Of a stretch of DNA of 64,000 nt, positions 12,499 to 31,402 are shown one piece after another. The notes below the pieces were generated by a model. It was not told the DNA's origin, did no database searches, and saw nothing but the letters and a program-made list of their open reading frames with translations. Position numbers and translations under genes: made by a program. How positions within the stretch are numbered: the stretch's first letter is position 1; every line of letters starts with the position of its first letter. The stretch is from an uncultured Alphaproteobacteria bacterium (GTDB taxonomy: Bacteria > Pseudomonadota > Alphaproteobacteria > RF32 > CAG-239), in the NCBI GenBank assembly GCA_904501925.1, contig CAJGCO010000001.1, positions 58,485 through 122,484 on the forward strand, read 5' to 3'.

Positions 12499-14351
12499 CG
12501 TATCCTAACCACACTACAAATAATACCATTTACCCCTAATTGACTACATATTCTATCTCCGTCTTCTATTGTACGAATTGGGCCTACTCTTAAATGAAAC
12601 ACCTCTCTACCTTGACCATCAGCAGGTGTGTCTACAGAATAGAATGGTTCATATTTTCCTATAACTGCAGGATAGTTTTTAGAGATATCAGACCATAATC
12701 TCTCTAAATTATTTATATTTTGATCAGTACCTAACTCTATTGATATTGAACTATTATCTTGAACTGATTGTTTTACTTTGTTTTGTTTAAAAGATGATAA
12801 TATATCTCTTGTTTTTGGTGTCATTAGTATATCATCATCAGGTATTGTATTATTTTGTATTGTGTTTTTGTTTGTTAAATTAGATGAATTAATGTTTTCA
12901 ACTTCATGATTTATAATATCTGCTCCATTTTTTACATCATCTTGAAGACTTTCTATACTTTCTGAAGATGTGTATTCTGGAACTATGATTACTCCATCTC
13001 CAACATTTAATTTAACTTGTTCTACAGGGGCTTTTTCTGGACTGATTGATTCACCTACAATTGGAACAACCTTTGGAATATCATTCACATTGGGAACATT
13101 TTTAGTTATTTTGCTATATTCCTCCAATATTTCTTCAACATTCTTCATTTCATTGCTGTCATTTTTCTTATTTTTATTATCTTTTTTGAAAAAGGAATCG
13201 AACCAACCTTCTTCTTCCTCTGTATCTGCTACACCTTCTGAATAATAAACATCATTTATATCTTTTTCAGAGATGTTTTCATTAGATGTTTTTTCGTTTG
13301 TATCTCTTTGAGAGGCGTATCTATTTTGTACATCCCATTCATTACTTGGAGCATAAACAGCATTTTCTAAACCATCTGTGTCTGCTCTGCGTAATTTTAA
13401 GCAAACCATACGTTTTCCTGAACGTAATACCATATCACCCATTCCCTCAACAATAATCAATCTATTGTTTGGGCCAGCTGCTCTAAAACCAACTGGGGTT
13501 TCTGAACGTTCTACAATTAGAGTAACAATAGGACGTTGAACTGCTGTTAGTGATTTTTCTCCTAAATCAATATATGTAAATATATTATCACGCCATACAC
13601 GCTCTGGAGCAATAATAATATCATCTGGATTTGGAACATATACTTCAATATCAAATCTAAATTGTGTTGGGTCTACTGGTATCTTTTGTATCCAATCTTC
13701 CTTTTGCAAATTACTTGTGTATGTCATTGCTCCACTATTTGTAGAACCACCATTTCCACCTTGATAGCCTGAAGATAAATTATTACCTGATGCGCCACCC
13801 TTGTTATTTTCTAATACTTCAATATCGATAATTGCATTGGTAATTCTATCTGTGTTAAATGTTTCACTTTGCATATAAAATACATACTTATTGCCTGAAC
13901 GACCAAAAACAATCATATTAGTATCTACACCAACAAAACTAGACGCATTTGGATATACTAAAAGGCTAGTTGGACCATTAATTTCTGCTTGAAAAGACTT
14001 TGTATCACCGATGTAAACATTTTCGATTATTTCCCAATTTGGAAAATTAATAAGTGTATACATACCTTCACGCACTCTTAATGGTAAAACTAAATCAGGT
14101 GTCCAATAATATTTAGTATAGCCAGGACGAGTTTGACCTTCACCCATATGTTGAAGAGGATCTTTCCACGCACTTTGTATCATACCTAAAGATCCACCAC
14201 CACCTAAGTAATTTAGGTTTGTAGATGCATAATTGCCTTGACTTTGGTCAGCACTCTGATCAAGTGTATCTTTGGTTACTTGAGCATTTACGGCAGTAGC
14301 AACCACTGACATAAGTAAAACAACTGATAGTATTTTATACATTTTAATCAT
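12495..14351 (-). CDS. virB9: VirB9/TrbG/CagX-family outer-membrane core protein (618 aa) with a long low-complexity linker and a C-terminal SPOR-like domain
   Basis: Signal peptide MIKMYKILSVVLLMSVVATAVNA. The VirB9-like N- and C-domains include YYWTPDLVLPLRVREGMYTLINFP, MIVFGRSGNKYVFYM, RFDIEVYV and PIVTLIVERSETPVGFR..MVLRSGKRMVCLKLRR. The last 84 aa (nt 12498-12749) read SISIELGTDQNINNLERLWSDISKNYPAVIGKYEPFYSVDTPADGQGREVFHLRVGPIRTIEDGDRICSQLGVNGIICSVVRIR, which fits the SPOR pattern. Confidence 0.85.
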   Translation of the reverse strand: MIKMYKILSVVLLMSVVATAVNAQVTKDTLDQSADQSQGNYASTNLNYLGGGGSLGMIQSAWKDPLQHMGEGQTRPGYTKYYWTPDLVLPLRVREGMYTLINFPNWEIIENVYIGDTKSFQAEINGPTSLLVYPNASSFVGVDTNMIVFGRSGNKYVFYMQSETFNTDRITNAIIDIEVLENNKGGASGNNLSSGYQGGNGGSTNSGAMTYTSNLQKEDWIQKIPVDPTQFRFDIEVYVPNPDDIIIAPERVWRDNIFTYIDLGEKSLTAVQRPIVTLIVERSETPVGFRAAGPNNRLIIVEGMGDMVLRSGKRMVCLKLRRADTDGLENAVYAPSNEWDVQNRYASQRDTNEKTSNENISEKDINDVYYSEGVADTEEEEGWFDSFFKKDNKNKKNDSNEMKNVEEILEEYSKITKNVPNVNDIPKVVPIVGESISPEKAPVEQVKLNVGDGVIIVPEYTSSESIESLQDDVKNGADIINHEVENINSSNLTNKNTIQNNTIPDDDILMTPKTRDILSSFKQNKVKQSVQDNSSISIELGTDQNINNLERLWSDISKNYPAVIGKYEPFYSVDTPADGQGREVFHLRVGPIRTIEDGDRICSQLGVNGIICSVVRIR

Positions 14352-14368: not shown

Positions 14369-15127
14369 TTAGTTATTAACTCTTTTCTCTTGTTTATAAT
14401 CAACAACAGTAAACCCTAATGGATTTTTTAACCTCTCACCGAATCTAACCTTTTTAGATCTATATTGAATTCTAACGTTTGCGACCCAAACACTTACTCT
14501 TGGGCTTTCATAACTTGGAGCCATATCTTCTACACGAAATTCTATTTGCCACCAAGGAGCACCTTCACCGCCAACCTCTGTAACTGATGCAATTTTTATA
14601 CTACGGGTAATATTATACTGACGTATTAATTTTAGAGTTGGTTCTGCAAAACCTTCTCTAAAACGCTTAAACACTGCAGGAGAAGATAATTCTCTAATTT
14701 TACCTTCTGCACCCCAACGACGCTCCATTTCATCAATATCCCCAACAAATGTGTTGTATAACAAAATATATTCTCTAACAAAAAGCTCTGTTAAATATTT
14801 TTGATTATACAAATCTTTAATTGGAATTATATTATACACTTGCTCACCTTTATCAGCAAATGTGAACAAATATGGAGCCACTCTATATAGTGGTGTTATA
14901 GCAACCATAACATATAACAGCATGAGATTACAACACATGCTAACGGCAAAAATTATAGCAAATGCACGAGCTGTCCATAAATATCTTTTTTCTGTTGCGT
15001 TTTCAACAACAACATCAGCTCTAGATGCTTTACGTCTAGCAGGCTGAGGCTCGGGAGCTCTTTTTACTCCACCTCTACCTTCTATAAGTAATTGCTTTGT
15101 ATTTTCTGCTGATATTTGCTCTGTCAT
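14369..15127 (-). CDS. virB8: T4SS protein VirB8 (copy 1)
   Basis: Bitopic: an N-terminal cytoplasmic tail and a single TM (AFAIIFAVSMCCNLMLLYVMVAI). The periplasmic NTF2-like part ends in the typical RLKNPLGFTVVDYK. Confidence 0.85.
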   Translation of the reverse strand: MTEQISAENTKQLLIEGRGGVKRAPEPQPARRKASRADVVVENATEKRYLWTARAFAIIFAVSMCCNLMLLYVMVAITPLYRVAPYLFTFADKGEQVYNIIPIKDLYNQKYLTELFVREYILLYNTFVGDIDEMERRWGAEGKIRELSSPAVFKRFREGFAEPTLKLIRQYNITRSIKIASVTEVGGEGAPWWQIEFRVEDMAPSYESPRVSVWVANVRIQYRSKKVRFGERLKNPLGFTVVDYKQEKRVNN

Positions 15128-15143: not shown

Positions 15144-15332
15144 TTAAACAGATGCATTAAACCAATCTGGCAATGTCTTAGGTAATTCTACTTCAATACA
15201 TGCACAAGGTGAAAGTTTTAATTCATATACGTCTTTACCTACGCCAACTGGCTCTGGCTCATAGTAGCTACCCAACATGTTACAAGCAGCCAAAACAGCT
15301 ATTATCATAAATAGAAATATCTTTTTTAACAT
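15144..15332 (-). CDS. virB7: Small lipoprotein in the VirB7 position
   Basis: 62 aa with a lipobox (AVLAAC). It sits between two virB8 paralogs, as RvhB7 does in Rickettsiales. There is no family-specific sequence motif beyond size, lipobox and position. Confidence 0.55.
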   Translation of the reverse strand: MLKKIFLFMIIAVLAACNMLGSYYEPEPVGVGKDVYELKLSPCACIEVELPKTLPDWFNASV

Positions 15333-15478: not shown

Positions 15479-16234
15479 TTAATATTCCCCTTCAACTTCA
15501 CTTTGGAAATATTTATGAACAACAAAGCCTAAAGGATTTATTAAACGACGAAAAGAGGTTCTTCTATTTACATCAATATAGCTACGAACGTTTGCTGTCC
15601 AATAACGCTCTTTTACTATTGGTTCCACTGTAGTTTTAACAGCATAGTCTTTATTATAAAATGTGTATTCATATGTTTTAAACTCTACTTTCCAGGTATT
15701 ACTTTTACTACCACCGGTTCTTTCTACTGATAATATTTCAACGGAACGGCTTGATTGGTTATCTTCCATCTCTTGTTTTAACTTTGGATACTCTTGAGCA
15801 AATTCTTTATATACCTTATAAGATGAAAGATAGGAAACTAAACCACCCCACTCCCAGCGATTTGTCATTTCTTTATCGTCTCTAATATATGTATTTCTCA
15901 TTTCAACATATTGTTTCATGAAGTTAATCATCATATTTTCTCGCGACTCCATATATCTATCAATATGTTCTTTTTTAACTAAAGAATTAGAATCATACAT
16001 TGGAGTAAAAACCTGTGCGTCAACCAAAATCTCAGGAGCTAGCTTGGTTATGGATAATGTTAAACAAACCATAGCTAAAATAGAAATTGTTGCTAAGAAA
16101 GTCATAAAAACACTTACACATTTGTAATATATAACTTTTATGTTCTGAACTGATACAACTTCTTGGGTTATGAAATCAGGTGTTTTATTATTTGATGTTA
16201 TTTTAAGTATTTTCTGATTTTCAAGGTTCTCCAT
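15479..16234 (-). CDS. virB8: T4SS protein VirB8 (copy 2, divergent paralog)
   Basis: Same architecture as copy 1. One TM (VFMTFLATISILAMVCLTLSI) and a C-terminal RLINPLGFVVHKYFQSE. Confidence 0.8.
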   Translation of the reverse strand: MENLENQKILKITSNNKTPDFITQEVVSVQNIKVIYYKCVSVFMTFLATISILAMVCLTLSITKLAPEILVDAQVFTPMYDSNSLVKKEHIDRYMESRENMMINFMKQYVEMRNTYIRDDKEMTNRWEWGGLVSYLSSYKVYKEFAQEYPKLKQEMEDNQSSRSVEILSVERTGGSKSNTWKVEFKTYEYTFYNKDYAVKTTVEPIVKERYWTANVRSYIDVNRRTSFRRLINPLGFVVHKYFQSEVEGEY

Positions 16235-16246: not shown

Positions 16247-19200
16247 CTAATATACTGGACAATATGGGGCAACTTTGGATTGGTTATCCATTGCTACAAG
16301 AGCTTCTTCTACCATTTCAAGACTTGCTTTCCTATCTATTGCAGACTTGTAAATTGCCTCTTTTGTTACAACATCAGCACCATCACCTGGTTTTATTTCT
16401 AACTCCTCATTGCTATCAGCTTCAAGAGCTTTTATTAAACTTTCTAATTCTTCAATACGATCTTTAACCATATTTTTCTCTTTTCTTTTGAGACCATCTA
16501 AAGCATTAGCTAATGCTTTTTTAGCTTCATTTAATTTTTGAGCTTTTGCAGTATTTAGAGTACAGAATATTGTTTCATAAGTGCTCTTTTTAGTTGATGA
16601 ACGATTACAAATGCTTTCTTTTACTTCTTTTTTATCAGAAGAATTAGATGCTAACCCATTTGTATCCATAATATGGTCTAGACATGCTTGTGTTTTTTCA
16701 TCACCTTCTAGCTCTTGTTCTATATCGCTAACCACTAAATCATTTTCATGTATTGTAGAACATAGTTGTTTTACTTTTTCCTCTATGGATAGTCTACTCT
16801 GATTCATGTTCTTTCTAGTATTGTTTTCCATATCTAGAACATTTAGGAAGCGTCCCATAACATTGTTTGTATACATAATACTTAAAGCCATTTGGTTTTC
16901 AATGTTATTTTTGGTATCCTTAGAAGTTAAGCGTTTACCACTGGTATGTATTGGTCTACGATATGCAATTTTCTTATTATGTTTTTTTACGAATTGTGTT
17001 AATTCGCTGATATTTTTATATATTGGTCTATTTTGAGCTTTCTTAAACTCTTTAATATACCCTTTGTTTTTATTTTTACTGATACTCTTATTTGAGTTGT
17101 AATCAGATAAATTATGCTTTATGTATTGATTTGATAAGCTTACATCATAACAATTATTATTTACAGTTCCTGCAAGGACATTATTTTTAATATAATCTAA
17201 ATTACCAACTTTATCTGCGTCTTCAACGTCAACTATAGTATTTCCAATTTTACATGGATATACGCCTGCACGATTTATTGTTACGTGTACTTCATCTTCG
17301 TCAAATTTATCAAGATATTTTAACAAACGAGTTGAATCATAAGATCTCTCTGTAAATGTTTGTTGATATTTACCATCATTTCTTAAATTTGGTCTAGCCA
17401 ATAGATAACGCCATACCTCTGGTAAAATTTCAATATCTTCACCTGGATATTTTTCTTCTAGTAAAACAGAGATGGCTGGGATTGCATCTGAGACTGCTTT
17501 TTTAGATGGGATATTATCATAATCAACAGATGAGAAATAGAACGCTTCACGAAGTGGTGGAATGTTTGCCAAAGGCGCTTTTGGAGCCTTATAATCACAT
17601 CCATCGTGTTTATTTGCATCTTGACCGTATACGCAATGATCAAAACTTGCTTGTTTGAATAATCCTCGGGCTGGAATTGATGCAAAGTATTCTGTATCTG
17701 TTGTTATTAAACTATCATCAATAACACCAAATACTTTGCGCAAATCTATACCTGCTTCAGATAGTTTTTGTTTATTGGCTGCTTTTGGTGTTATGATATC
17801 ATTTATCATCTTTTTGTGACCCATGGTAATTTTAGCATTTTCATCATTATCACCATATAGTGTCATATCCATATAATCTATGCTACATCCACCAGGAATG
17901 TGCTCACCACCTTCGCCAAGTACGCATAATTTGTTTTCTGCCCAATTATTTACTATATCATTTGCTTTTTCTACTTCTGAAGCTGCTATTTTATCAGCAT
18001 CCTCAATTTTATCGGCAATTCTTGCTGTGGCAATTTTTATGATATTGTCTTTTACCTTTTCAATTATCTTATTAGCAGAGTAAAGACTTGGATCTAAGTA
18101 TTTTCCATCACCAATATCAAGTCTTTCGCTAATATATATTTTATCTGGCAATCCTAATGAGTTCTTAAAATTATTACCCAGTGATGTTAGTTTACTATTA
18201 GTAAACCAAGTACTTTCGATACTTTCTTTAATGAAATCACTATCGCTTAATTTTGTTGAACTATCAATTTTTCTTCTATTTTCTAGAACAAGTAAAATTG
18301 TTGATGATAAATCATTTGTAGTATGAGAACCTCTTTTTCCCTTCATTCTTTTTACATCATCATCATCTGAATATTCAACAAACTCTTCAAACTTCTTGTT
18401 TGATTTTTCAATATTGTCTTGTGCCTCTTCTGCTACATCAACATAATCTTCTGCAAATTTTTCGGCTAATTGTTTTAATCTTTCTTCTAATTTAAGAAGA
18501 TCATCCCTACTGCTCTTTAATAAACTATCGTAGCTTTTTATTTGAGAACCATAACTTTTGATTTTTGAATTAGCATAGTCAATAGTTATATATTTCTCGC
18601 TTTCGGTATCTTCTTTAATACAGATTTTCTTACCCAAACGCCCACTTTCTAGTTTAGTACATAAACTATTCTCTTGTTGTGAGGATTTAGTAATTCTATC
18701 TATATTGAATTTGTTAAGTGATATTTTTCTATTATTACCATTTATGTCTTGAATTACACCCAATCTGCCTTTTAATATTTCTTTTTGTAGTTTTTTATTA
18801 CTATCTTCAAGCATATCATTATCTTTACCAAGTTTTTCTACCATACTTTTAGATTTGGATAGTCTTGATATTATATCATTTTTCTTAGTGGTCAAACTAT
18901 CAACTGTTTTCGACCAACTTTTTCTATTTTTAGCAATTTTTTCTTTCTTATTTTCTGCAGCCGTTTTATTATTTAAGTAGTTATTTATCACTTTTGTTAT
19001 TTTTTTGTTTTCTTTAACTCTTTTTGTCTTCACGTCTTCTAGTTTATCAAGAGCTATTATTCTTCCCTTTGATTGGCCAAATGAATACATGTTTCTAGCT
19101 TGAGCATCTGTTGAGCCACCACATCTACCTAAAACAGTTGGGAAGAATTTTCGTACAAGGAAATTAACAGTAAAGTTCCAAGTTCCGGCACAACTCTCTG

Positions 19201-21670
19201 TTGTTCCTTCAGAACCAGAATTAATTAAGTTTTGGATATCTTTTGGCTCTTTATAGAATTTAGTAACATAGTTTTGACCATACTTATTGATATATGAATC
19301 TTTGCTATTTCTAATTCTTAAATCTATTTCATTTTTTAGAGTTTTTGTATCTTTTCTTTTTGTTCCTTCAATATATTCTTCATATTTTATATCAACGAAA
19401 TTAGCATCTGATGATGCAACTGCATAACAAGCTAGTTCCATTTTAGAATATTTTTCAACAGATTTAATCTTATGGCCTTTTACAACTCTTTCACGCCAAC
19501 TAGCAACAACCTCTTTGGTATATTGTTTTTTAGTTGCATCATATTTATTATATGAACTACACAATCCTTTAGATTTTGCATATGTTATTGCACTACCATC
19601 ATTAACAGCCTCTTGTGGGGTTTTTAATGAAGTTAATTTATTAACAAGTTTTTGTATTGGCTCTTTTTCATCATCATAACTTTGTTTATCAGAATATTTT
19701 GCTGTTTGCGATTTAGCTATTCTGTATGATGCATCTGCAAGGTCTATAGAATTTATAACCATACGAATGTTGCGATATTTATTGAATAAATATTCTTTTT
19801 GAAGAGCTTGTTGGTCAACCCATTTATCAAATTTAAATTTATCTAGATTTTCCATAATTATGTTATGACCAAGGCGCCATTTATTTTCGCCTTTTTTTCT
19901 ATTTTCGTTTTCAATTTTTTCAGAATCTGACATATTTATAAATCCATCAGATGTATGCATATCTTCTGTATCTACACTATCTTCTGAATCGACTGATACA
20001 CTTTGATGTCCATTTAATCCAGATTCCATATCAGCAGTTATTGTTTCAACGCTACATGCAAATAAACTACTATCATTCTCACAAGCATTATTTTTATCAG
20101 AAACATATCCATCTGGACAAGCTCCTTCTTCGTAATAACCTCTACAATCAGATGTTGTTCCAATAAATTTATCTGTTGCATCTTCTTGGTATCTTATAAT
20201 TAACTCTCTTGATAAACCTTTACGTTTTTCATGATTATTAATTTGATAAAAACGATCCCAGTCATCACTTCCTAACCATATTGCCTTACCACTCTCATTT
20301 GGATCTTTTTTATGTCTTTCAATAAAGCTTATAACACAATTATCACTTTGAGACAAACCATCTAATGCACGTTTGTGTACCTCTACTGATTTTAAGTATT
20401 TACGATATTCAGTGTTGTATTCTGGTAATTCGTATTTTATGTTATGTATCAAGCGAGCTTCTTCAATAAGATCTCCTACAGGAGATAGTTTACTTAAAAT
20501 TTCACTATTATCACCAGCGTTTGTTTTACGGGGTGTTTTGTTTATAAATGGACAGAATGGTGACTTAGTTTTTTCGCATAAACCTTTTCCTAGTTTACCA
20601 AGTCCAAACATTTTTGCATTACTATGTTCTTGGCTATTAACATATGCAAATTGATAATTTTGCTCTATATATTTCGAGGCATTGCTTTCTTTAATTGGTT
20701 CTGCATAATCTAATTGTGCTGCGGCTCTGTATATTGCTTCCATAGTTGTTAAATCTTCAACAATGCGCAATAATCTATCATATATAGTTGTTACAATATA
20801 TGAGTTCATATAATCGCCTTGTTTTCCACCTTCTTCTTCGCCTTCGCCCTCTCCTTCGCTTTCTTGGCCATCGCCACCATCAAAACTTGGATCTGAATAA
20901 ACTATTTGCATGCCAAAAAATACACAATCTTCACCTTGTTTATTTCCTAAAATACATTCGTCTACGTTGTTTAATGTTTTTTCAACTTCATTTAAATAAA
21001 ACTCATTTAATCTGCTAACAAGATATGTTTCTACAAATACGTCTTGTTTATATTCCTCTCGTTTACTTCTATAAATACTCTTTACAATTGAGAATTTGTC
21101 TTCTCCTACTTCGCTTTCGCTTGGTAAATACATAAACAATGTTTTGTATGCTTGTTCATATTCGTTTTCATCAATAGAATTTTCTGAAATACCTAAGTCG
21201 CTATCTGCTTTATTGCCACCTCTACCTGGAACTTTACTTTGGCCTGGAGTATCGCTTGAAGCGCTAGTACCTCCACCGGTCAATCCTGACAAAGCACCGG
21301 AACCTCCGGTTATACCTGATAAACCACCAGAACCTCCGGTTATACCTGATAAACCATTAGATAAACCACCAGTTATACCAGATAGACCATTGGATAATCC
21401 ACCAGTTAATCCTGATAAACTTGATGCTCCTGGTATCATACCTGCAACACCACTAACTTTGATGCTTTGAATTTTTTGGTACACAGCCTGCACTTTTGCA
21501 ACTTGATTTTGCACGTTCACAATCAATTTTTGAACATTACTTGGTAAGCCAGCAATTGGTTCACCAGGCATAGGAGGAATAGGTAGGAAAGCATATACAT
21601 TATTTGATGTTGCGCATAATAGAGCAGCGCACACCACTAACACTCTTACCTTTTTTAACAAACTAATCAT
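16247..21670 (-). CDS. Giant secreted Cys-containing coiled-coil protein (about 1807 aa) with a VirB5/TrbJ-like N-terminus and a Gly-rich repeat
   Basis: The likely start is the ATG at 21670 (MISLLKKVRVLVVCAALLCATSNNVYA signal), which overlaps the upstream stop (ATGATTAG). The mature N-terminus is FLPIPPMPGEPIAGLPSNVQKLIVNVQNQVAKVQAVYQKIQ, followed by (GLSGITGG)n. The remainder is K/E-rich with many Cys and no TM helices. Confidence 0.7.
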   Translation of the reverse strand: MISLLKKVRVLVVCAALLCATSNNVYAFLPIPPMPGEPIAGLPSNVQKLIVNVQNQVAKVQAVYQKIQSIKVSGVAGMIPGASSLSGLTGGLSNGLSGITGGLSNGLSGITGGSGGLSGITGGSGALSGLTGGGTSASSDTPGQSKVPGRGGNKADSDLGISENSIDENEYEQAYKTLFMYLPSESEVGEDKFSIVKSIYRSKREEYKQDVFVETYLVSRLNEFYLNEVEKTLNNVDECILGNKQGEDCVFFGMQIVYSDPSFDGGDGQESEGEGEGEEEGGKQGDYMNSYIVTTIYDRLLRIVEDLTTMEAIYRAAAQLDYAEPIKESNASKYIEQNYQFAYVNSQEHSNAKMFGLGKLGKGLCEKTKSPFCPFINKTPRKTNAGDNSEILSKLSPVGDLIEEARLIHNIKYELPEYNTEYRKYLKSVEVHKRALDGLSQSDNCVISFIERHKKDPNESGKAIWLGSDDWDRFYQINNHEKRKGLSRELIIRYQEDATDKFIGTTSDCRGYYEEGACPDGYVSDKNNACENDSSLFACSVETITADMESGLNGHQSVSVDSEDSVDTEDMHTSDGFINMSDSEKIENENRKKGENKWRLGHNIIMENLDKFKFDKWVDQQALQKEYLFNKYRNIRMVINSIDLADASYRIAKSQTAKYSDKQSYDDEKEPIQKLVNKLTSLKTPQEAVNDGSAITYAKSKGLCSSYNKYDATKKQYTKEVVASWRERVVKGHKIKSVEKYSKMELACYAVASSDANFVDIKYEEYIEGTKRKDTKTLKNEIDLRIRNSKDSYINKYGQNYVTKFYKEPKDIQNLINSGSEGTTESCAGTWNFTVNFLVRKFFPTVLGRCGGSTDAQARNMYSFGQSKGRIIALDKLEDVKTKRVKENKKITKVINNYLNNKTAAENKKEKIAKNRKSWSKTVDSLTTKKNDIISRLSKSKSMVEKLGKDNDMLEDSNKKLQKEILKGRLGVIQDINGNNRKISLNKFNIDRITKSSQQENSLCTKLESGRLGKKICIKEDTESEKYITIDYANSKIKSYGSQIKSYDSLLKSSRDDLLKLEERLKQLAEKFAEDYVDVAEEAQDNIEKSNKKFEEFVEYSDDDDVKRMKGKRGSHTTNDLSSTILLVLENRRKIDSSTKLSDSDFIKESIESTWFTNSKLTSLGNNFKNSLGLPDKIYISERLDIGDGKYLDPSLYSANKIIEKVKDNIIKIATARIADKIEDADKIAASEVEKANDIVNNWAENKLCVLGEGGEHIPGGCSIDYMDMTLYGDNDENAKITMGHKKMINDIITPKAANKQKLSEAGIDLRKVFGVIDDSLITTDTEYFASIPARGLFKQASFDHCVYGQDANKHDGCDYKAPKAPLANIPPLREAFYFSSVDYDNIPSKKAVSDAIPAISVLLEEKYPGEDIEILPEVWRYLLARPNLRNDGKYQQTFTERSYDSTRLLKYLDKFDEDEVHVTINRAGVYPCKIGNTIVDVEDADKVGNLDYIKNNVLAGTVNNNCYDVSLSNQYIKHNLSDYNSNKSISKNKNKGYIKEFKKAQNRPIYKNISELTQFVKKHNKKIAYRRPIHTSGKRLTSKDTKNNIENQMALSIMYTNNVMGRFLNVLDMENNTRKNMNQSRLSIEEKVKQLCSTIHENDLVVSDIEQELEGDEKTQACLDHIMDTNGLASNSSDKKEVKESICNRSSTKKSTYETIFCTLNTAKAQKLNEAKKALANALDGLKRKEKNMVKDRIEELESLIKALEADSNEELEIKPGDGADVVTKEAIYKSAIDRKASLEMVEEALVAMDNQSKVAPYCPVY

Positions 21671-22997
21671 TTTTGCCTCCTTCCATTCCAGCATGCAAAT
21701 CGACTCGGTCTTTCTTCATATCTTCTATTGTACTATCAATAAGTTGACTATCAACTTTATAATTTTTTAATTCTACTGGTCCATAGTAGTCTTTTTTACC
21801 AACTTTTTCTAAATCTGTTTCATTGATTTCTTTTGCTGCTAAAAATTGTAATTTTGCAGCTTGCAATTTTGCATATAAAACTAGAGCTCTAGCATTTTCT
21901 AATCTAGTTTTGGTATAAGTTGTTATGGCCTGAACTTCACCTTCTGATTGAGCTGCTTCCTCATAATATGTTTTAGCTTTTTCTGTTCGCTCTGGAAGCT
22001 CTCTCTTTATTGTAGCAGATACCTGCAACAAATGTATTACAGTATTTAAATATAAGAATTTTCTTTCTCTTATAACTCTATCTGTAACTGTGGTACTTAC
22101 TGCTGCTTGATTATAACCATTTTTTTCACCGGTTATTCTTTTATTTATTTCTTCTTGATCATAAAAATATGTTTTTACAAAAGTTTTGTAATTTTCTTCA
22201 GTTAATCCAAATTCTCCTGTTATATCATTTTTTCCACCCCAAGTTTTATCACCATTATCCTTATCTTCACTTATCATTTGGGCTTTTTCTTCTGTTTCTT
22301 CTAGAAGTTTCTTTTGTTTTTCAAATTCTTGATATGTATCATCTTCTTCAGTTCCGATTTTAGATTTTTCTTTTTCTAATTCCTCTTTATTGCTTTCTTC
22401 TTTAGTCTTACGTGCAGAAATTTCATCGAGCAGTAAGCTTAATTCTTCATATTCGGATAATTTTTTTTGATACTCAGTCTCTGCTCTTACTATTTCTATA
22501 GCTGATTTATTTGATGAAACTAATCTATCATATTTAGCTTTTGCTTGCTCTACTTCACTTTTCTTTCGCTTTTGTTCATTTTTCTTGTTTTGTTCTTCTT
22601 TTTTTAATTCTTTAATATTTTCTTCTGATATTTTTATTTTTGCCTCAGCTAATTCGGTTAAGGCTTGTTGATGTAATGCTTGTTGTGCATTTACTTTTTT
22701 TCCAGTTATTTCTTTTGTTCCTTTAATTATACCTTCTTCATTAGAGGATAATTTAAATTTAGGCATTTTAGGTAAATATTTAAGTAAATCTTCTTTACCA
22801 AAACCGATACTTTTCATTTTGGTAATAAGATCTGTTGCTTTTTGGATTTTTTGAGCAATTTCATTAATGATTTCTACCATATCATTAACTTTTGCTGCTG
22901 TTTGGCTAAAGTCAAGGGTTATTGACGCCTCAACTTGTTTTAGAGGAGCAAATACTATGAGTGTGCTTAAAATTATTATTGATATAAAATTTCTCAT
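21663..22997 (-). CDS. Secreted coiled-coil protein (444 aa), VirB5/TrbJ-like N-terminal helix
   Basis: Signal MRNFISIIILSTLIVFAPLKQVEA, then SITLDFSQTAAKVNDMVEIINEIAQKIQKATDLI. The rest is K/E-rich coiled coil. Confidence 0.55.
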   Translation of the reverse strand: MRNFISIIILSTLIVFAPLKQVEASITLDFSQTAAKVNDMVEIINEIAQKIQKATDLITKMKSIGFGKEDLLKYLPKMPKFKLSSNEEGIIKGTKEITGKKVNAQQALHQQALTELAEAKIKISEENIKELKKEEQNKKNEQKRKKSEVEQAKAKYDRLVSSNKSAIEIVRAETEYQKKLSEYEELSLLLDEISARKTKEESNKEELEKEKSKIGTEEDDTYQEFEKQKKLLEETEEKAQMISEDKDNGDKTWGGKNDITGEFGLTEENYKTFVKTYFYDQEEINKRITGEKNGYNQAAVSTTVTDRVIRERKFLYLNTVIHLLQVSATIKRELPERTEKAKTYYEEAAQSEGEVQAITTYTKTRLENARALVLYAKLQAAKLQFLAAKEINETDLEKVGKKDYYGPVELKNYKVDSQLIDSTIEDMKKDRVDLHAGMEGGKND

Positions 22998-23000
22998 AAT

Positions 23001-23687
23001 TTATTCCTCCACATCATTTTTTATTTTATTTTTAAGTTCAAGAGAATCTACGGCTGTAATCATATATGCTCTAATTTCAAGAATACGTGATAGACGCTTT
23101 TGACTGTTTAATACAACTTTATTTTGAGATGATAAAATAGTTTCAGATGATTGTGTTGCATTCTCGTATGGATATAATTCTTGGCTATCTTCATCTATAA
23201 TACTTTGGTGTGTGGCCATTGCTTTGGCAAATAATACGGAAATATCTTTTACAATTGTTGCATTGATATTTTCTGCTAAACTTTTCTGAACATCAAGAGA
23301 TTTATCTTGTCCTTTTTTGTATATGTAAGTATCTGATATTTTTTTTGCTAAATCTGTAGGATCTTCAGCTGCAATATCACCTTCATCTAAACCAGAACCC
23401 TCTAGGGCAACCACACCTGTTATTGGTGTTATCTGAGAACCTCCACTTCCACAAAGCTCTGGTAAATAATTACATATCTCACCTAAAAAACCTTGTTTAA
23501 GTTTTTCTTTTGCATCTTCAATTGAGTTTTTAACTTCTTCTACTTGTTTTTTTACTTCATCAACATGTTTCATTACTGTTTGAAGTAAAGCTACAAAATC
23601 AAACACAGCATGAGCTTCTCTTGCAAAGAGCATAAATGATAAAAACACAGCTATTAATAATCTACTCTTCATCTCGAATCTCCCCAA
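23001..23687 (-). CDS. VirB5/TrbJ-like minor pilin/adhesin candidate (about 223 aa from the internal ATG at 23672)
   Basis: Signal MKSRLLIAVFLSFMLFAREAHA, then VFDFVALLQTVMKHVDEVKKQVEEVKNSIEDAKEKL. Compare the (I)PVFD start of mature TrbJ/VirB5. The size matches canonical VirB5. Confidence 0.55.
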   Translation of the reverse strand: MGRFEMKSRLLIAVFLSFMLFAREAHAVFDFVALLQTVMKHVDEVKKQVEEVKNSIEDAKEKLKQGFLGEICNYLPELCGSGGSQITPITGVVALEGSGLDEGDIAAEDPTDLAKKISDTYIYKKGQDKSLDVQKSLAENINATIVKDISVLFAKAMATHQSIIDEDSQELYPYENATQSSETILSSQNKVVLNSQKRLSRILEIRAYMITAVDSLELKNKIKNDVEE

Positions 23688-25899
23688 AATAGCTATAATC
23701 TAGACTGTTTATATCTTTTAGAATTTCTGCTTGCAAATTTGTTGCATCTGCATCTACAATATTTAACAACTGAAGCGTTGAATAATAATTAATTTGAGCT
23801 CCTGATGCATAATAATCTTTATTTGTTGCTGCTTCATTTAATTTACTTTGAAGTGATGCGATATTCATATCGTCCTCAGGTTCATTATAATACTCTATTC
23901 CTGAATTATAATTTGCAATTAGAGCCATTAATAATTTATCGAAATTTGAATTTTGTGATACTTTTCTTTGATTTTCTCTCCAAATATCTTTTATTTCTTG
24001 AGCATTCTCTGCTTTTTCTTCTGGAGAATTTGGATCTAAGCCTAATGTTGACGTTAAAGCATATAAAGTTAAACAGCCATTTATATTATTTTCAGCACTT
24101 TTTATTTTATCAGCATCATATTTATCATCAGATGAAACAGATATGTCTTCAGCTTTTAATCCACAGTGTTCTAAGATTAGATTGGGAAAAACATGCTTAT
24201 CCTCTATAAAACCTGGACTATTTTGAATTGAACTTTTTACATCATCTGTGTTTAACAATAACTCTTTTTCAGAACTTAATAATTGAACAACTCTTTTAGC
24301 AGAATCTACTGCATCTACACGTCTTATATGGTTCCATAAAATTGGTGCGTGAATATCTATATTACATATTTGGCTGATACTATCTTGGATACTTTGCGCG
24401 TCTTTTATGCTATCATTTAACTCTTTATATGTTGATGAGTTTTCATCAACATCCCCACGCCATGATTGAGCTTTTTGGATTGCTGCACCTGTTGTTATTT
24501 TATTGGCTGCATTATAATCTTCTAAGATATGATAGAATATACCATTTCTTTCAATATCATCAAGGTTTTCATTGGATGAATCGTCAACTATTTTCTTTAG
24601 AAGATCATTTTGTCCATCTTCTTTACCTTTAATCATTTGCACACATTGTCTTAACCACCCTGGGTTTGTCTTTAAATCTTTTATATCGTCTAGTGTTTTA
24701 TCATAACAAACCAATTCTGATGATGTTAAAAAGCTTTTAATACCACTTTCTGAATTTATTGTGATAATTTTAGCGTTTAAGTTGTCTATATTATTTTTAT
24801 ATAAAAATGCATATTTAAGATTTTGTTTTAATTCATCTACTGATGAGGTTTTTTTTTCATCTCCTGTTTTTTTTTCATCTGAGGTTTCTGGGGTTGTTAC
24901 TTCTTCCTCGTCAGAATATTCTTTGCTATTACTTATGGCATTAAGAGCATCATCTTTAATTAAATCAATTTGTTTTATGATTTCTTCTGATTTTTGGTTT
25001 ATTGTATTTAGCACATCGTCTTCTACGGTTGCTTTGGCTGATGCAATACTATTTGTTAATTCTTCACCAGCTTTGGCTAAATCCTCTTGGCTTATTTCTC
25101 CTCTATTAAATGCTGCAACTGCCTCACTATATTGATCATATGCAGCTATAATCTTTTCTTTATATTCTGTATCAAGATTTTCTTTGATTTCATCTAAAGC
25201 TTGACTAACTTCAGCGCTTAATTCATCTAATTGCTGTTTTAAATTATCAATTTTTTCTAACAATTCAGCTTTAGTCTCGCTATCAACACTTTCATCTTTT
25301 TCTACTTTCTCTTGAATACCTTCTAAAGCATCTTTTGATAATTGAATACCTGCTAAAGCTTGCTCTTTTGCATTATCTATAAATTCTTTAACGTCATTTA
25401 AGTTAGCTTCTGCGTTAGCTCTGTTTTCATTTAATATTTCTTCATCAACATTACCATCTTTGCTATCTTCTTGAACTTGAGCTACAGTTTCTGTTGCCCT
25501 TTGCTGTTCTACGCCTAGGACAGATTGAGCTAAATTACTTATATTTTGCACATTTTCAGTTAATGTTGATATTGTTGAATTAACTGCTTCACATAATCCT
25601 TCTATGCCTTCTTTGATACTTGTTATTGCATTCTTTAATGTATCTATATATTTTAGCATAGTTGATAATTGATCTCCTAATGCATTGATTTGTTGTACAG
25701 TCGCTGTTATACCACTAACAAATGATGTTGCCTTGGAAATGTTTTTAGTAATTGATGTTATGAATTGTGTTATTTGAACAGCATCAATAACTGGCCAAAC
25801 AAATGCATGTGATGGACGTGCAAACAAAGAAAACCAACAGCAAAATATTACTGTTATAATCTTCCTATTTATAATATTTTTCTTCATTTCTTCCTCCAT
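23662..25899 (-). CDS. Secreted coiled-coil protein (745 aa) with a VirB5/TrbJ-like N-terminus
   Basis: The signal ends ..FARPSHA, then FVWPVIDAVQITQFITSITKNISKATSF. The protein is long, acidic and helical. The ATG at 25887 (MKKNI), preceded by GGAGGA, is an alternative start. Confidence 0.6.
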   Translation of the reverse strand: MEEEMKKNIINRKIITVIFCCWFSLFARPSHAFVWPVIDAVQITQFITSITKNISKATSFVSGITATVQQINALGDQLSTMLKYIDTLKNAITSIKEGIEGLCEAVNSTISTLTENVQNISNLAQSVLGVEQQRATETVAQVQEDSKDGNVDEEILNENRANAEANLNDVKEFIDNAKEQALAGIQLSKDALEGIQEKVEKDESVDSETKAELLEKIDNLKQQLDELSAEVSQALDEIKENLDTEYKEKIIAAYDQYSEAVAAFNRGEISQEDLAKAGEELTNSIASAKATVEDDVLNTINQKSEEIIKQIDLIKDDALNAISNSKEYSDEEEVTTPETSDEKKTGDEKKTSSVDELKQNLKYAFLYKNNIDNLNAKIITINSESGIKSFLTSSELVCYDKTLDDIKDLKTNPGWLRQCVQMIKGKEDGQNDLLKKIVDDSSNENLDDIERNGIFYHILEDYNAANKITTGAAIQKAQSWRGDVDENSSTYKELNDSIKDAQSIQDSISQICNIDIHAPILWNHIRRVDAVDSAKRVVQLLSSEKELLLNTDDVKSSIQNSPGFIEDKHVFPNLILEHCGLKAEDISVSSDDKYDADKIKSAENNINGCLTLYALTSTLGLDPNSPEEKAENAQEIKDIWRENQRKVSQNSNFDKLLMALIANYNSGIEYYNEPEDDMNIASLQSKLNEAATNKDYYASGAQINYYSTLQLLNIVDADATNLQAEILKDINSLDYSYFGEIRDEE

Positions 25900-25929
25900 A
25901 CTACATAATACTATATATCATATACTAAA

Positions 25930-27105
25930 TTAATTCGCCTTAGATTTATCACCCATATTGATTATTTTATTGCTTACTTCTTTTAATTTATCTTTTATTG
26001 AGGTTGAGGCTAATGCAAACTCTTGATTATTATTACCTTTTAGAGATAAAACAACTGAATTAACTTTTTTCTTAAACTCTTTACCACTATTTAGAAATCT
26101 ATCTTTTGATATATCTCCATAAATATAGGCCTCAACTATTTTTTCATAATTATTAAAACCTTCTTTGATTTTTGCATCATATTCTCTATTATAGCTATAC
26201 TTTTTGCTCTCTGCTGATGCTATTATCTTTGAATATAATTGATCGTTTTCTTCTTTTATGATTTCTAATTCTTCTGATATTTGAGCTTTTTTATCATCTG
26301 CAATATCTGCACTACTATCAACACGTTTTTGAATTTCATCTATTTGAGCTGATGTAATTTTATGATTTTCGCTCAATTTATTTATTGCAACATCAAGATA
26401 ATCATTTAACATTATATGAGATTTTTCAATTTCAGCTTCTGTCAATGCTATAACTTGTTTTGCTTTTGATAACTGCTCATTATCATCAATTTCTTCCTCT
26501 TCTTCCTCTTCTTCAATAACTTCTAATTTAAGAGGAGTATCTTTTATTAGTAAACCTTCTGGAGTTTCTAGTTTAATAGGTTCTTTGGGCTCGATATCTT
26601 CAGGAATTTTTAATTCAAGAGGTTTATCTGTTTTTGTATCATTTACCTTATCAGCCATTTGTTCTACATCATTAGTTAGATTTTCAACATCTGTAGTAAT
26701 GTTTTCAATTTCATCAATAGCACTTTCTATACAATCTACTTGTCCTTGTGCTATTTCAGACATTTTACTATTAATTTCATCTTCAATATTAGCAATACGA
26801 TCTAAATTTTCAGAGATTTTATCATTTATAGATGTCATAAACTCATCTATTGCTGAAGGGTCAAAACCTAAAATAGCAGCAAAAGAAGCAAGAGATGCCA
26901 CGGAAGCTTTTAGGGTTTCAAGGGATTTTTTTAAATCTGCTAATGACTGCTGAACAGTTTTCAACTGTTTACCAGACTCAACAACACCTTTTATCGTTGG
27001 AACAATCTCACCCATATCAAAAACAGGCCAAAAAGCCTTTGTTTGATTAGAAATAAGCATTAAACTAAACAAAGATCCAAAAAATAAATGCTTATACTTC
27101 ATCAT
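25930..27105 (-). CDS. Secreted coiled-coil protein (391 aa) with a VirB5/TrbJ-like N-terminus
   Basis: Signal MMKYKHLFFGSLFSLMLISNQTKA, then FWPVFDMGEIVPTIKGVVESGKQLKTVQQSL. Compare RP4 TrbJ, whose mature end reads GIPVFD......I...ES (recalled from memory). It also carries a poly-Glu run. Confidence 0.6.
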   Translation of the reverse strand: MMKYKHLFFGSLFSLMLISNQTKAFWPVFDMGEIVPTIKGVVESGKQLKTVQQSLADLKKSLETLKASVASLASFAAILGFDPSAIDEFMTSINDKISENLDRIANIEDEINSKMSEIAQGQVDCIESAIDEIENITTDVENLTNDVEQMADKVNDTKTDKPLELKIPEDIEPKEPIKLETPEGLLIKDTPLKLEVIEEEEEEEEIDDNEQLSKAKQVIALTEAEIEKSHIMLNDYLDVAINKLSENHKITSAQIDEIQKRVDSSADIADDKKAQISEELEIIKEENDQLYSKIIASAESKKYSYNREYDAKIKEGFNNYEKIVEAYIYGDISKDRFLNSGKEFKKKVNSVVLSLKGNNNQEFALASTSIKDKLKEVSNKIINMGDKSKAN

Positions 27106-27173: not shown

Positions 27174-29621
27174 TTAGATTCCGTTGAGATACTTTGTAAC
27201 AAAGCCATCCTCGCCATATTCTTTTACCAAGCTCTCAACTAGCAACACATTCTTAATACCTGAGTTATATAATTTAAGATATGGGCCTAAACCACTTAAA
27301 TTTACATCTAAAATAACTGATTCACCTTCTCCATTTTCACCAGCATCTGCTCTCTTTACTAAAATAGCATATGGGCAATCACGATAACTCTTACCACTTA
27401 TAAAATCGTATTCACTATCTGTTAAATTCCATTTTTCATAAGATTCAGGAGTTGCTTGAGTATTTCTAAAGAAGATAAGAGTTTTACACTGACCACGCAC
27501 AGCGTCACCTACACCTAATGCATCAACAATATTTGGTTGTTGGAACGCACATAAATATGCTTGTCGTTTTTTACGTCCCTCTTGCAAACCTTTGATAAAT
27601 GAATCTCTAAACATTTCGTGCTTCAACATAGGAGCAGTCTCGTCTATCATAATTAATGCAGGGCTACCTGTTTCTGTACTTTCTGCCTGTATTCTATGCA
27701 TGATATAACTAATTGACGCTGCTGCTAAAACTTCATCATCAAAGATATCAGTAAAATCAAATGCTACAAAACGATTTGAACTTAAATCTAAGCTATCATG
27801 ATCCGCATTGAATATATTACCGTATTGTTCAGGATTTATCCAACGATATAATTCTCTTCGCATACTACCTGTTGGAGAGAAACAGCTCTTATATAAATTA
27901 CTTAATTTTCTTTCATCTGATTTCAAATAATCAAACGCTGTTGTAACTGCTCGGCTTGCCTCTCTATCAGATAAGGCATCTTTTGCCATAGTTATCGCTT
28001 TTAACCAGTTACGTAAAAATGCTCTATTACCTGATGTATCTCTTGTATCAAAAGGATTTAACGACACATTTTTACGCTCACCACTAAATCCAACGTATGC
28101 ACCTTTTACTGTATGAGTAAAAATCTCGGCACCTCTATGACGGTCAAAGAAATATACTTTTAAATCACTATGACGCATTGCCTGACCAGCTAAGAAGGTT
28201 AAAAGAGTTGTTTTACCTTGACCTGTTGGACCAACAATACAGCAGTGCGCAACAGCTGATTCAGCTGCTGAAACGTGGAACTGGAACTGATATGGAGAAC
28301 CACTCATTGTTCTAAATACACTAATTGCCCCCTCACCCCAGTCACTTCTTGATAATCCAGTTGGATATTGATCAAATGAAACAGCTAAAGCAACAATACG
28401 TGACAGATAAAAATAAGAACGCCCACAAACATCATATCCTGGAAATTGATTAAAAAATGTAGCTTGAGTAATCCAATTTTCTCTAACAGGTGTTACACTA
28501 AATAAACGACATATTCTTTGAATTTCGCTTTCTCCAAATAATATTTCATCAATACTATCGCCTTTTAATATGAAACTCATTGAATATTGAACTAATGATT
28601 GATGATCTGCATCGCTATCTTCTATTGCACCAAGAGCTTCACTGTATTGCATAACAACATCTGATGAAAAACTGGTAGCTTCTGCCATTTTTTGTTGTTG
28701 TACTAAAACCATTCGTGCTTTAGGTTTGTAAAAAGGATTTATATTATGCAATATTGTTAATTCGCAATCAATAGACATTAACGCTGATAACATATTTTCA
28801 TCCATATAGTCACCAGATGTTCTAATCCCCATTGCTATGGCAAATTTTTCTTTTTCTCCAGAAAAGAATTTTATAACACCTTCTTCTCCTGTAAAATGTA
28901 TTCCATCTGAGCTTAAAAGTTCTTTTAATTGAAATCCTTCAGCGCCTCTTGCTTTAGGCTTTGGTTTACTAATTGGATTTAACACTCTAACAAATGGATA
29001 AAACGGGCTCATTTCTGCAGGACTAGTTTCATCCTCATACATAACCTTAACCCCGTAATCATTTAAGTTTGCAAGTACAGATTGTGATGCATAGTTTAAA
29101 TCTTTAATTGCATCTTTAGTATCTGCTATTGACAATATGATATAGTGGTCATTTTTGTATACTCTACTTAAATTTTCACGCCATTTTTCATCGACCACTT
29201 CTAGCCACTTATTACCAAAATCAACTTTATTTTTTGCGACTTCTGAACGTTCTCTTATTGTAAAAACTCGACATTTAATTTGAAGATCGGCCATATTATC
29301 TATCCAAGCCTTTCTAGCTTCAAACATAGATACTATTGTTTCTTCTGTTGCTGCAGATAAATCTAAACCACTAACTTTAAAAACCCTTACATATGAACCA
29401 TTTGAACATCTAATAGTTGTACCATCTGAAAGTAATCTATCAAAAGGCAAAAAATCAGCAACCCTTGTTTCGTTTGGTTGTGGCAAAATGATTGCCCCTA
29501 ACTTTGTTACCATTGATACAGCTATAGCGATAGCTGCTATAATACCAATAACAGATACTACAACCTCTGCACTTTGCAAACCTGATATAAACAGAGTATA
29601 AAAATCAAAATTAAGGTTCAA
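27174..29621 (-). CDS. virB4: T4SS ATPase VirB4
   Basis: 815 aa. Walker A GPTGQGKTTLL and Walker B region LIMIDE. The N-terminal hydrophobic segment is atypical. It overlaps virB3 by 11 nt. Confidence 0.92.
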   Translation of the reverse strand: MNLNFDFYTLFISGLQSAEVVVSVIGIIAAIAIAVSMVTKLGAIILPQPNETRVADFLPFDRLLSDGTTIRCSNGSYVRVFKVSGLDLSAATEETIVSMFEARKAWIDNMADLQIKCRVFTIRERSEVAKNKVDFGNKWLEVVDEKWRENLSRVYKNDHYIILSIADTKDAIKDLNYASQSVLANLNDYGVKVMYEDETSPAEMSPFYPFVRVLNPISKPKPKARGAEGFQLKELLSSDGIHFTGEEGVIKFFSGEKEKFAIAMGIRTSGDYMDENMLSALMSIDCELTILHNINPFYKPKARMVLVQQQKMAEATSFSSDVVMQYSEALGAIEDSDADHQSLVQYSMSFILKGDSIDEILFGESEIQRICRLFSVTPVRENWITQATFFNQFPGYDVCGRSYFYLSRIVALAVSFDQYPTGLSRSDWGEGAISVFRTMSGSPYQFQFHVSAAESAVAHCCIVGPTGQGKTTLLTFLAGQAMRHSDLKVYFFDRHRGAEIFTHTVKGAYVGFSGERKNVSLNPFDTRDTSGNRAFLRNWLKAITMAKDALSDREASRAVTTAFDYLKSDERKLSNLYKSCFSPTGSMRRELYRWINPEQYGNIFNADHDSLDLSSNRFVAFDFTDIFDDEVLAAASISYIMHRIQAESTETGSPALIMIDETAPMLKHEMFRDSFIKGLQEGRKKRQAYLCAFQQPNIVDALGVGDAVRGQCKTLIFFRNTQATPESYEKWNLTDSEYDFISGKSYRDCPYAILVKRADAGENGEGESVILDVNLSGLGPYLKLYNSGIKNVLLVESLVKEYGEDGFVTKYLNGI

Positions 29622-29901
29622 ATTTATGTCCTTTCACTTTATATAAGTTATTTGGAACAACATTTGTCATACCAAATGCTTGTATCATATTAGATAAATG
29701 AGGATCTTTTGAACTTAACGCCACAACAATTACATGTCCAACTAAAATACTTACAATAAATATTAAAGGGTTGGCTTGCCAAATACCGATCGCCATAAAC
29801 ATAAAAGGAACTTGCAATCCAAAATTTAATGCTGCAGGCAAAACAGCCCCCCAAAAAATCTTAGGAGGATTAGCAACAGCTTTTAATATCATTTCTCTCA
29901 T
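29611..29901 (-). CDS. virB3: T4SS protein VirB3
   Basis: 96 aa with two TM helices. It sits immediately upstream of virB4 and overlaps it. Confidence 0.8.
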   Translation of the reverse strand: MREMILKAVANPPKIFWGAVLPAALNFGLQVPFMFMAIGIWQANPLIFIVSILVGHVIVVALSSKDPHLSNMIQAFGMTNVVPNNLYKVKGHKFEP

Positions 29902-30358: not shown

Positions 30359-30368
30359 AGCACCCTCC

Positions 30369-30680: not shown

Positions 30681-30797
30681 AATAAACCTCCCTCCCGAGC
30701 GTTTTCTTTTATTGTATCATAAAAAAAATGTTTTTTCCAGCAAAAAAAAATATCTAAAAATACATCCATCTTATTGTTTTATATACTTTTTTACCTT

Positions 30798-31391: not shown

Positions 31392-31402
31392 TTTAACCAA
31401 AC

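Follow-up and report, generated by a model that had tools for sequence, protein, structure and literature searches.

Five exported proteins, two with a VirB5-type N-terminus, in the VirB6 slot of an rvh-like type IV secretion operon of gut Alphaproteobacteria

The window analysed here is a 64,000-nucleotide stretch of contig CAJGCO010000001.1 (G+C content, 31%) from an uncultured alphaproteobacterium; its minus strand carries an operon for a type IV secretion system (T4SS) in which five consecutive genes, here called A, A′, B, C and D, separate virB4 from virB8. The best-supported reading of the proteins A and A′ is that they are minimal, highly divergent VirB5 homologues that keep only the N-terminal element of that family, while B, C and D form, as judged from sequence, three new conserved protein families. 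Our preferred explanation, which we hold with a probability of roughly 0.55, is that the five genes encode Sec-exported, disulfide-containing and mostly alpha-helical extracytoplasmic parts of a P-type T4SS that represents a distinct, rvh-like lineage in host-gut Alphaproteobacteria, comprising the divergent VirB5 proteins A and A′ and their lineage-specific partners B, C and D.

Export signals and N-termini of the five proteins

The open reading frames (ORFs) of the block, and the motif on which the comparison with VirB5 turns, are as follows.

25930 to 27105, minus strand: protein A (p391), 391 aa, with a signal peptide, a VirB5-like N-terminus, a variable insert, a poly-Glu run and a C-terminal helical domain
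26908 to 27033, minus strand: VirB5-type N-terminal motif of ~42 residues (p391 residues 25-66), the sole stretch aligning significantly with TrwJ/VirB5
23662 to 25899, minus strand: protein A′ (p745), 745 aa, a p391 paralogue with the VirB5-type N-terminus FVWPVIDAVQI
23001 to 23687, minus strand: protein B (p228), a 228-aa ORF; the probable start from orthologue alignments is Met6, giving 223 aa
21663 to 22997, minus strand: protein C (p444), 444 aa, with a signal peptide, an N-terminal motif, a coiled coil and a C-terminal domain
16247 to 21694, minus strand: protein D (p1815), an 1815-aa ORF; the probable start from orthologue alignments is Met9, giving 1807 aa

Gene junctions inside the block are tight or overlapping. 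An earlier annotation of the window, made by a model from the letters alone (the initial annotation), had described five ORFs between virB4 and virB8 (391, 745, ~223, 444 and ~1807 aa), each with a cleavable signal peptide and none with the transmembrane helices of VirB6; our analysis agrees on all of these points. Signal peptides and cleavage sites were read directly from the sequence. All five N-termini combine a basic n-region with a hydrophobic core and a cleavage site of the A-x-A type (TKA/FWPV in p391, SHA/FVWPV in p745, AHA/VFDF in p228, VEA/SITLD in p444 and VYA/FLPIPP in p1815). Past the signal peptide, a Kyte-Doolittle scan found no hydrophobic window of ≥1.6 in any of them (maxima elsewhere, 0.9-1.4), and because no hydrophobic segment lies beyond the signal peptides, VirB6-type topology is absent from all five; none matched the TrbL/VirB6 family (PF04610) at E values up to 1. 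Conserved cysteine pairs are present in the orthologue alignments of p745, p228 and p1815 and fit an oxidising extracytoplasmic location. No catalytic, toxin or adhesin domain was detected in any extension by Pfam, NCBIfam and PDB profile searches; NCBIfam gave no match for any of the five, and database matches were mostly to coiled coils and designed helical bundles.

The evidence that ties A and A′ to VirB5 comes from the first residues of the mature proteins. In p391, cleavage after Ala24 leaves the VirB5-like N-terminus FWPVFDMGEIVP, followed by a helix. Using hhalign, the families were compared with eight VirB5 proteins annotated on plasmids, after the signal peptides had been cut from all sequences. 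Positions 1-42 aligned with positions 1-42 of VirB5 in both cases, at probabilities of 93-95% for p391 (E value 2e-7) and 75-87% for p745 (E value 2.6e-5). The corresponding scores were 46.2 and 36.1, compared with 16.6 and 12.2 for reversed targets and at most 24 for 22 windows from internal helices; both kinds of control keep helical periodicity. A column-shuffle null was dropped after every pair had looked significant under it, a misleading outcome because shuffling destroys that periodicity. When a profile of the p391 family was searched against the PDB, the match to TrwJ of R388 (7o3v_A) had an E value of 0.007 and spanned the signal peptide plus ~45 residues at the mature N-terminus. The p745-family profile gave no T4SS match in the PDB, and single-sequence phmmer searches of the PDB with p391, p1815 and p745 were discarded, having returned coiled-coil noise or nothing. 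A protein homologue search gave at least two proteins with p391 as query and at least one with the p1815 alignment. The VirB5/TrbJ family, PF07996, was the commonest Pfam match among p391 orthologues (6 of 28, best E value 3.9e-5) and was also found in 5 of 21 p745 orthologues. Gene position points the same way: virB5 directly follows virB4 in R388 (trwJ) and in seven other plasmids, as does A here, starting 68 bp past virB4, and the genes for p745, p228, p444 and p1815 come next, without a virB6. The VirB5-type N-terminus of p391 and p745 is real. The element that they keep consists of a hydrophobic residue, Trp/Ile, Pro, two variable positions and Asp, then an amphipathic helix of ~35 residues ending in a conserved Gly.

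With canonical VirB5/TrbJ proteins (TrwJ of R388, TraC of pKM101 and Agrobacterium VirB5), the block shares the Sec signal peptide, the gene position directly after virB4 and the all-helical character; the mature start (G/F)(I/W)PV(F/I)D, the long amphipathic helix and the Gly are shared by p391 and p745 only. Unlike those proteins, A and A′ are 1.7-3.3 times longer and carry unrelated downstream domains, and there is no adjacent virB6 or EexN/virB7-type gene. The initial annotation had given p391 a C-terminal extension. Its extra length is not an addition to a complete VirB5 and lies instead in a variable internal insert, a poly-Glu run (E199-E205) and a conserved C-terminal helical domain common to p745. 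Among p391 orthologues the poly-Glu run (7-8 Glu; residues 199-205, at 26491-26511 on the minus strand) is almost invariant, and its flanks are highly variable in length and content. p745 aligns with p391 over essentially all of the latter (hhalign 99.9%, E value 2e-36); the paralogy spans the first ~290 mature residues, and with ~25% identity the two are old paralogues. The remainder of p745 is a C-terminal extension of ~420 aa with conserved cysteines at 398/419 and 579/609, in which no recognisable domain was found.

The initial annotation had also ascribed VirB5/TrbJ-like mature N-termini to all five proteins. This stands for p391 and p745 and fails for p228, p444 and p1815, which group by sequence as three separate families without a significant VirB5 match. 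p228, the only one of VirB5 size, as had been pointed out, does not itself match VirB5. It is exported and all-helical, Cys72 and Cys79 form a conserved pair, and its family, for which there is no Pfam model, comprises 151 representative clusters (E values ≤1e-3) among 1.84 billion library proteins; the lineage is broad. An AlphaFold2 model built from a 107-sequence alignment (predicted local distance difference test score, pLDDT, 81.2) is elongated, with predicted helices at 31-74, 110-121, 130-165 and 181-220, a loop and a short helix separating 31-74 from 130-165. p228 would thus be a helical-bundle protein of VirB5 size, with a modelled topology compatible with VirB5. A first model from 17 sequences (pLDDT 47) was unusable, and its top Foldseek match, CagL at an E value of 2.4, was dismissed as meaningless. 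The p228-family profile also weakly matched influenza haemagglutinin HA2 (E value 0.08) over p228 residues ~30-85, a long helix followed by a CxxxxxxC loop; this match is not significant and is probably due to chance.

p444 has an N-terminal (I/L)-x-(I/L)-D motif and a helix ending in Q-G-F, then a long coiled coil rich in Glu and Lys and, at the C-terminus, a conserved helical domain (HLLQV..RRE.P). In p1815 the signal peptide is followed by an invariant PP.P motif, a short helix-like stretch, a Gly/Ser linker and large regions with at least five conserved cysteine pairs; contrary to the earlier description, the protein is not mainly coiled coil, and no match to a known domain was found. Profiles of the p228, p444 and p1815 families (the last restricted to the N-terminal 700 aa) gave no T4SS match in the PDB, where the other top profile matches were to SMC, designed bundles and a sorting nexin (E value 0.7). 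A loose pattern nevertheless runs through all five proteins: after the cleavage site come a short motif, either hydrophobic-Asp or PP.P, and a helix, and a Gly is conserved at mature position ~39-47. When the N-terminal regions were compared all against all, the best hhalign alignment of most family pairs was co-linear at the mature N-terminus, with scores of 25.5-28.3 (19-51% probability) for p391-p444, p745-p444 and p228-p444. As evidence of kinship this pattern is suggestive only.

Conservation and divergence of the module

Using VirB4 as a probe, we collected 80 loci from metagenome-assembled genomes (MAGs) of uncultured Alphaproteobacteria, mostly from human, mouse and ruminant gut. In the 30 loci with a VirB4 79-85% identical, virB4 is followed by these five genes in unchanged order as far as the contig extends. 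Counted over complete related loci, the order is found in ~25, and it appears in further truncated ones; because it recurs in this way, the arrangement is not a product of chance. Distant operons (L027, L089, L090, L093, L097 and L099, all except L027 reached through remote members of the p228 family) have a four-gene form, with p391-like proteins of 283-569 aa, p228-like of 220-402 aa, p444-like of 404-423 aa and p1815-like of 1318-1484 aa. Profile searches confirmed the orthology of these A-D genes (for p444, hhalign 99.1%). The four-gene unit is followed there by virB8-virB7-virB8-virB9 and a giant protein, and in every related operon examined the module lies between virB4 and virB8-virB7-virB8-virB9. 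Because distant operons carry four genes in this slot, the ancestral unit is taken to be a four-gene module A-B-C-D, in which A was duplicated in the clade of the window.

Copy number varies for A only; the order is fixed, and the orthologues of B, C and D are each present once. The comparisons indicate that the block is not a recently diversified array of paralogues. The initial annotation had favoured a diversified VirB5 family, a proposal that gives way to this picture: only p391 and p745 are paralogous, and A, B, C and D each have one-to-one orthologues across a wide lineage.

The five proteins diverge far faster than the rest of the machine. Within the same genomes, orthologues of the five are 26-32% identical, versus 83% for VirB4, 76% for VirB3 and 54-68% for the VirB2 proteins. 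In deeper comparisons VirB4 is ~65%, VirB9 ~60% and VirB8 40-45% identical, and A-D fall to 26% or less or become undetectable by BLAST.

A different arrangement was seen in Enterousia-type MAGs (L032-L080), with a VirB4 40% identical to that of the window and, after it, a lipoprotein-like ORF of ~205 aa. Further downstream lie lpxK, lpxC and type IV pilus genes in place of the rest of the T4SS, and the T4SS genes of this clade seem to be scattered. The ~205-aa gene was tried as a VirB5 reference and rejected, being lipoprotein-like, without a Pfam match and followed by genes that are not of the T4SS.

The operon and its surroundings

The remaining genes of the operon are listed below.

31826 down to 759, minus strand: the single, chromosomal T4SS operon
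29990-30358, 30369-30680, 30888-31298 and 31455-31826 (span 29990 to 31826), minus strand: four VirB2-like pilin genes; PF04956 in three, the fourth by topology and paralogy
29611 to 29901, minus strand: virB3-like gene for a 96-aa membrane protein, assigned by position, size and hydrophobic segments; 76% identity among relatives, no family match
27174 to 29621, minus strand: virB4 (PF03135; TIGR00929, E value 3.5e-111), upstream limit of the five-gene block
15479 to 16234, minus strand: virB8, first copy (PF04335), downstream limit of the block
15144 to 15332, minus strand: virB7-like gene for a 62-aa lipoprotein (lipobox LAAC), between both virB8 copies
14369 to 15127, minus strand: virB8, second copy (PF04335)
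12495 to 14351, minus strand: virB9, 618 aa, with a CagX domain and a C-terminal SPOR domain
6226 to 12498, minus strand: 2090-aa beta-flower repeat protein with one strong N-terminal transmembrane segment, between virB9 and virB10
1839 to 6248, minus strand: virB10, 1469 aa, with beta-flower repeats ahead of the TrbI domain
759 to 1754, minus strand: virB11, last gene of the operon

The VirB2 genes at 30888-31298 and 31455-31826 are 87% identical and represent recent duplicates; the remaining two are 26-31% identical to this pair. In distant loci the orthologue of the fourth (29990-30358) is a pilin of 333-375 aa with a long C-terminal extension; this gene, which lies before virB3, had been considered as a possible VirB6 and was rejected on recognition of its VirB2-like character. 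The peptidoglycan-binding SPOR domain at the VirB9 C-terminus (PF05036, E value 2.5e-3) is below the Pfam cut-off. The VirB10 region is unusually expanded: the 2090-aa protein has 22 matched stretches of a 5-fold beta-flower repeat (PF21785, E value 1.5e-141), and the giant protein 3′ of virB9 in distant operons measures 1404-1580 aa. No virD4 was found in the operon or the 64-kb window; the operon stops at virB11, convergent with a GTPase gene, and therefore no virD4 follows virB11. The window holds one virB4 and one virB9, no second copy of either having been found.

This organisation resembles that of the rvh systems, in which islet A carries virB6a-e in the slot after virB4 (PMC2653234), and the earlier assignment of the block to the rvh VirB6 slot is borne out by the genes downstream. 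Both systems are alphaproteobacterial and host-associated; both have virB3-virB4 and five large genes, and the virB8-virB7-virB8-virB9-virB10-virB11 series that follows here has the order of islet C (PMC2653234), including the duplicated VirB8 flanking virB7. Multiple VirB2 genes are a further shared trait, on the rvh side known from Anaplasmataceae. Unlike rvh, whose hallmarks are multicopy VirB6 and the lack of a VirB5 analogue (PMC11077975) and whose five genes encode polytopic VirB6 paralogues of 674-1154 aa, the block encodes proteins without transmembrane helices, two of them VirB5-like. The genes here form one operon in contrast to the scattered rvh islets, and they differ further in lacking virD4 after virB11 and, in the window, a second virB9 or virB4.

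A type IVb pilus cluster (32172-42377, plus strand), transcribed divergently, adjoins the operon; its first gene is conserved and encodes 408 aa, and the others are for TcpQ, a secretin, PilO, a T2SSE ATPase and T2SSF. TcpQ and the secretin recur on the opposite strand upstream of the distant operons L089 and L090, and a type IVb pilus beside a T4SS recalls the thin-pilus/T4SS pairing of IncI plasmids. Housekeeping neighbours at 45646-46371 (minus), 46901-47794 (minus) and 49904-56162 (plus) include a DsbA-like thioredoxin, a XerC/D-type recombinase, an AddAB-type helicase-nuclease pair, ATP synthase subunit a, UvrC and a two-component system. Because housekeeping genes surround the operon, the T4SS is chromosomal and not obviously on a mobile element.

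Assembly of the module and alternative explanations

In R388, VirB6 carries a pentamer of VirB5 whose N-termini project (PMC9259494), and VirB5 is thought to be carried outward on the growing pilus (PMC9259494; PMC12857230). By analogy, A and A′ would after export use their VirB5-type N-terminal helix to dock in the middle of the machine, as VirB5 does in the R388 stalk, and would then travel outward on the VirB2 pilus. B, C and D may join them as accessory subunits of the stalk or tip; the N-termini of B and C are built similarly to the element of A and A′. In A′, C and D, the variable regions, coiled coil or rich in cysteine, might then present an exposed, fast-evolving surface that contacts the target. 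It is in this sense that we infer co-assembly, a location at the tip and a role in adhesion.

Several observations weigh against this explanation. The PF07996 matches of p391 (18.2 bits, E value 3.5e-3) and p745 (17.8 bits, E value 4.7e-3) are both under the gathering cut-off of 24.7 bits, and the likeness to VirB5 ends at ~42 residues, beyond which nothing aligns. For p228, p444 and p1815, hhalign probabilities against VirB5 are 1.5-9%, which is background level; PF07996 is matched by none of these three proteins and by none of 107 p228-family members. Foldseek searches of the PDB with the p228 model gave nothing better than an E value of 2: among the 50 matches listed, CagL appears only from rank 22 down with a template-modelling (TM) score of ~0.3 (3zci, rank 25, 0.31), and TraC and TrwJ do not appear. 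The A-C and B-C N-terminal scores (25-28) are only narrowly over their controls (12-24), and the N-terminus of p1815 is at background against everything. The fast divergence could also reflect weak constraint on coiled coils, without surface exposure. Finally, neither a TrbL/VirB6 match nor an unassigned polytopic ORF was found in the operon or, when the search was extended outside the block, in the 64-kb window; VirB6 is the known partner of VirB5, so the docking site that the model assumes has no candidate there.

Some of these points are tempered by what is known of other VirB5 proteins, which can diverge past detection by sequence and fold (bioRxiv 10.64898/2026.07.31.741991). According to this 2026 preprint, the VirB5 of the F plasmid, TraH, has retained nothing but a helix-loop-helix at its N-terminus, and searches by sequence or fold fail to detect it as a VirB5; by this precedent, undetected homology leaves room for a VirB5-like role of B and C without establishing it. 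TraH, recently proposed as a VirB5, and IcmX of Dot/Icm resemble the proteins described here in being exported, in being larger than canonical VirB5 and in having a VirB5 identity that escapes such searches save for a helix-loop-helix at the N-terminus. They differ in that each was recognised by its interface, modelled or observed, with its own VirB6 (TraG and DotA, respectively), a partner without a counterpart in the window.

As to VirB6 itself, none was seen in the examined regions of related operons either. Hydrophobic minus-strand ORFs at 32156-33034, with 3-4 segments each, were considered as a split VirB6 and rejected as shadows of a strongly conserved plus-strand gene. It is quite possible that virB6 is encoded elsewhere in the genome, because T4SS genes are scattered in relatives, both in the Enterousia-type loci and in Rickettsia with its five islets (PMC2653234). 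A T4SS lineage without any VirB6, in which stalk and tip would be a hetero-oligomer of minimal VirB5 (A/A′) and soluble B, C and D joined through their similar N-terminal helices, strikes us as improbable; if it existed, pilus nucleation would be solved differently from the VirB5 pentamer on a VirB6 pentamer of R388. Less probable again, and in our estimation a long shot, is that the system is truly devoid of VirB6 and that its function as stalk base or pilus-assembly platform has passed, without membrane helices, to at least one of the five proteins, the 1807-aa D above all. The genes do sit exactly in the VirB6 slot of rvh islet A (PMC2653234), and the negative searches for VirB6 would be accounted for; R388 VirB6, however, is anchored by hydrophobic helices (PMC9259494), whereas none of the five has a transmembrane or strongly hydrophobic helix, and the scattering of T4SS genes in relatives offers virB6 another place.

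The reading closest to the initial annotation is that all five are diversified VirB5 paralogues, alternative tip adhesins each able to cap the pilus alone, like the amplified TrwJ of Bartonella. The shared layout of signal peptide, hydrophobic-Asp/Pro motif, helix and Gly speaks for it, as do the co-linear alignments of most family pairs, the A-C and B-C scores slightly above controls, the capacity of VirB5 to diverge beyond detection, the multiple copies of VirB2 and the Trw precedent itself. Trw likewise has several VirB2, more than one VirB5-type gene and no coupling protein in the locus, and these components diverge there much faster than the rest of the machine, with an adhesion or variable-pilus role proposed for them. 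The Trw copies, however, are recent tandem duplicates, variable in number, of canonical trwL and trwJ-trwI-trwH units (PMC2883598), and Trw has kept its VirB6; in the present operon duplication is confined to A/A′ and two VirB2 genes, there is no co-amplification of virB6-virB7, and B, C and D each form a conserved family of their own. Paralogy can be demonstrated for A and A′ alone, B, C and D reach at most 9% against VirB5 with D at background throughout, and one-to-one orthologues in fixed order, variable in number for A alone, fit distinct subunits and not interchangeable copies. We therefore consider this reading unlikely.

A slightly smaller chance attaches to the idea that the five are two-step cargo, secreted toxins or effector-like modules that Sec would bring to the periplasm and a T4SS lacking VirD4 would then expel, in the way Ptl handles pertussis toxin (PT). 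All five carry Sec signals, virD4 is missing from the operon, A′ and D have large C-terminal regions with conserved cysteines, and evolution is very fast; Ptl provides a precedent of Sec-exported proteins encoded with a VirD4-less T4SS, extended by the proposal that PT is a structural stand-in for, or mimic of, VirB5 (PMC12857230). Yet ptx lies outside the ptl structural genes and encodes an AB5 toxin of known folds, and Ptl keeps a VirB6 (PtlD). Cargo genes are usually peripheral and variable, whereas the genes of this block are strictly co-linear inside a structural operon across a deep lineage; A and A′ bear the VirB5 N-terminal motif, no catalytic or toxin domain was detected by the searches above, and VirD4 could be encoded elsewhere in the genome. 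Least probable of all, and very unlikely, is that these are generic periplasmic coiled-coil proteins without a specific T4SS role whose VirB5-like N-termini reflect convergent features of amphipathic helices. The predominance of coiled coils and designed bundles among the database matches, and a VirB5 match that is short and below the Pfam threshold, would suit such proteins; their invariant place inside a T4SS operon with tight or overlapping junctions would not, nor would an A-VirB5 score far over the reversed and internal-helix controls and the recurrence of PF07996 among orthologues.

VirB5 and VirB6 make up the least understood and least conserved part of the T4SS, the stalk that nucleates the pilus and ends at its tip. 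In an operon that is conserved and common among Alphaproteobacteria of the human and ruminant gut, the VirB6 slot holds a VirB5-like protein pared down to the N-terminal element and three unannotated exported families. Should these prove to be ordinary accessory proteins with virB6 encoded elsewhere, the result would be a useful annotation of new T4SS-associated families and nothing more. If they serve as subunits of the stalk or tip, they would reveal what VirB5 cannot do without and would offer a natural test of a T4SS working with a non-canonical or elsewhere-encoded VirB6. Their very fast divergence makes A-D candidates for the host- or target-specific contact surface of these poorly known gut symbionts.

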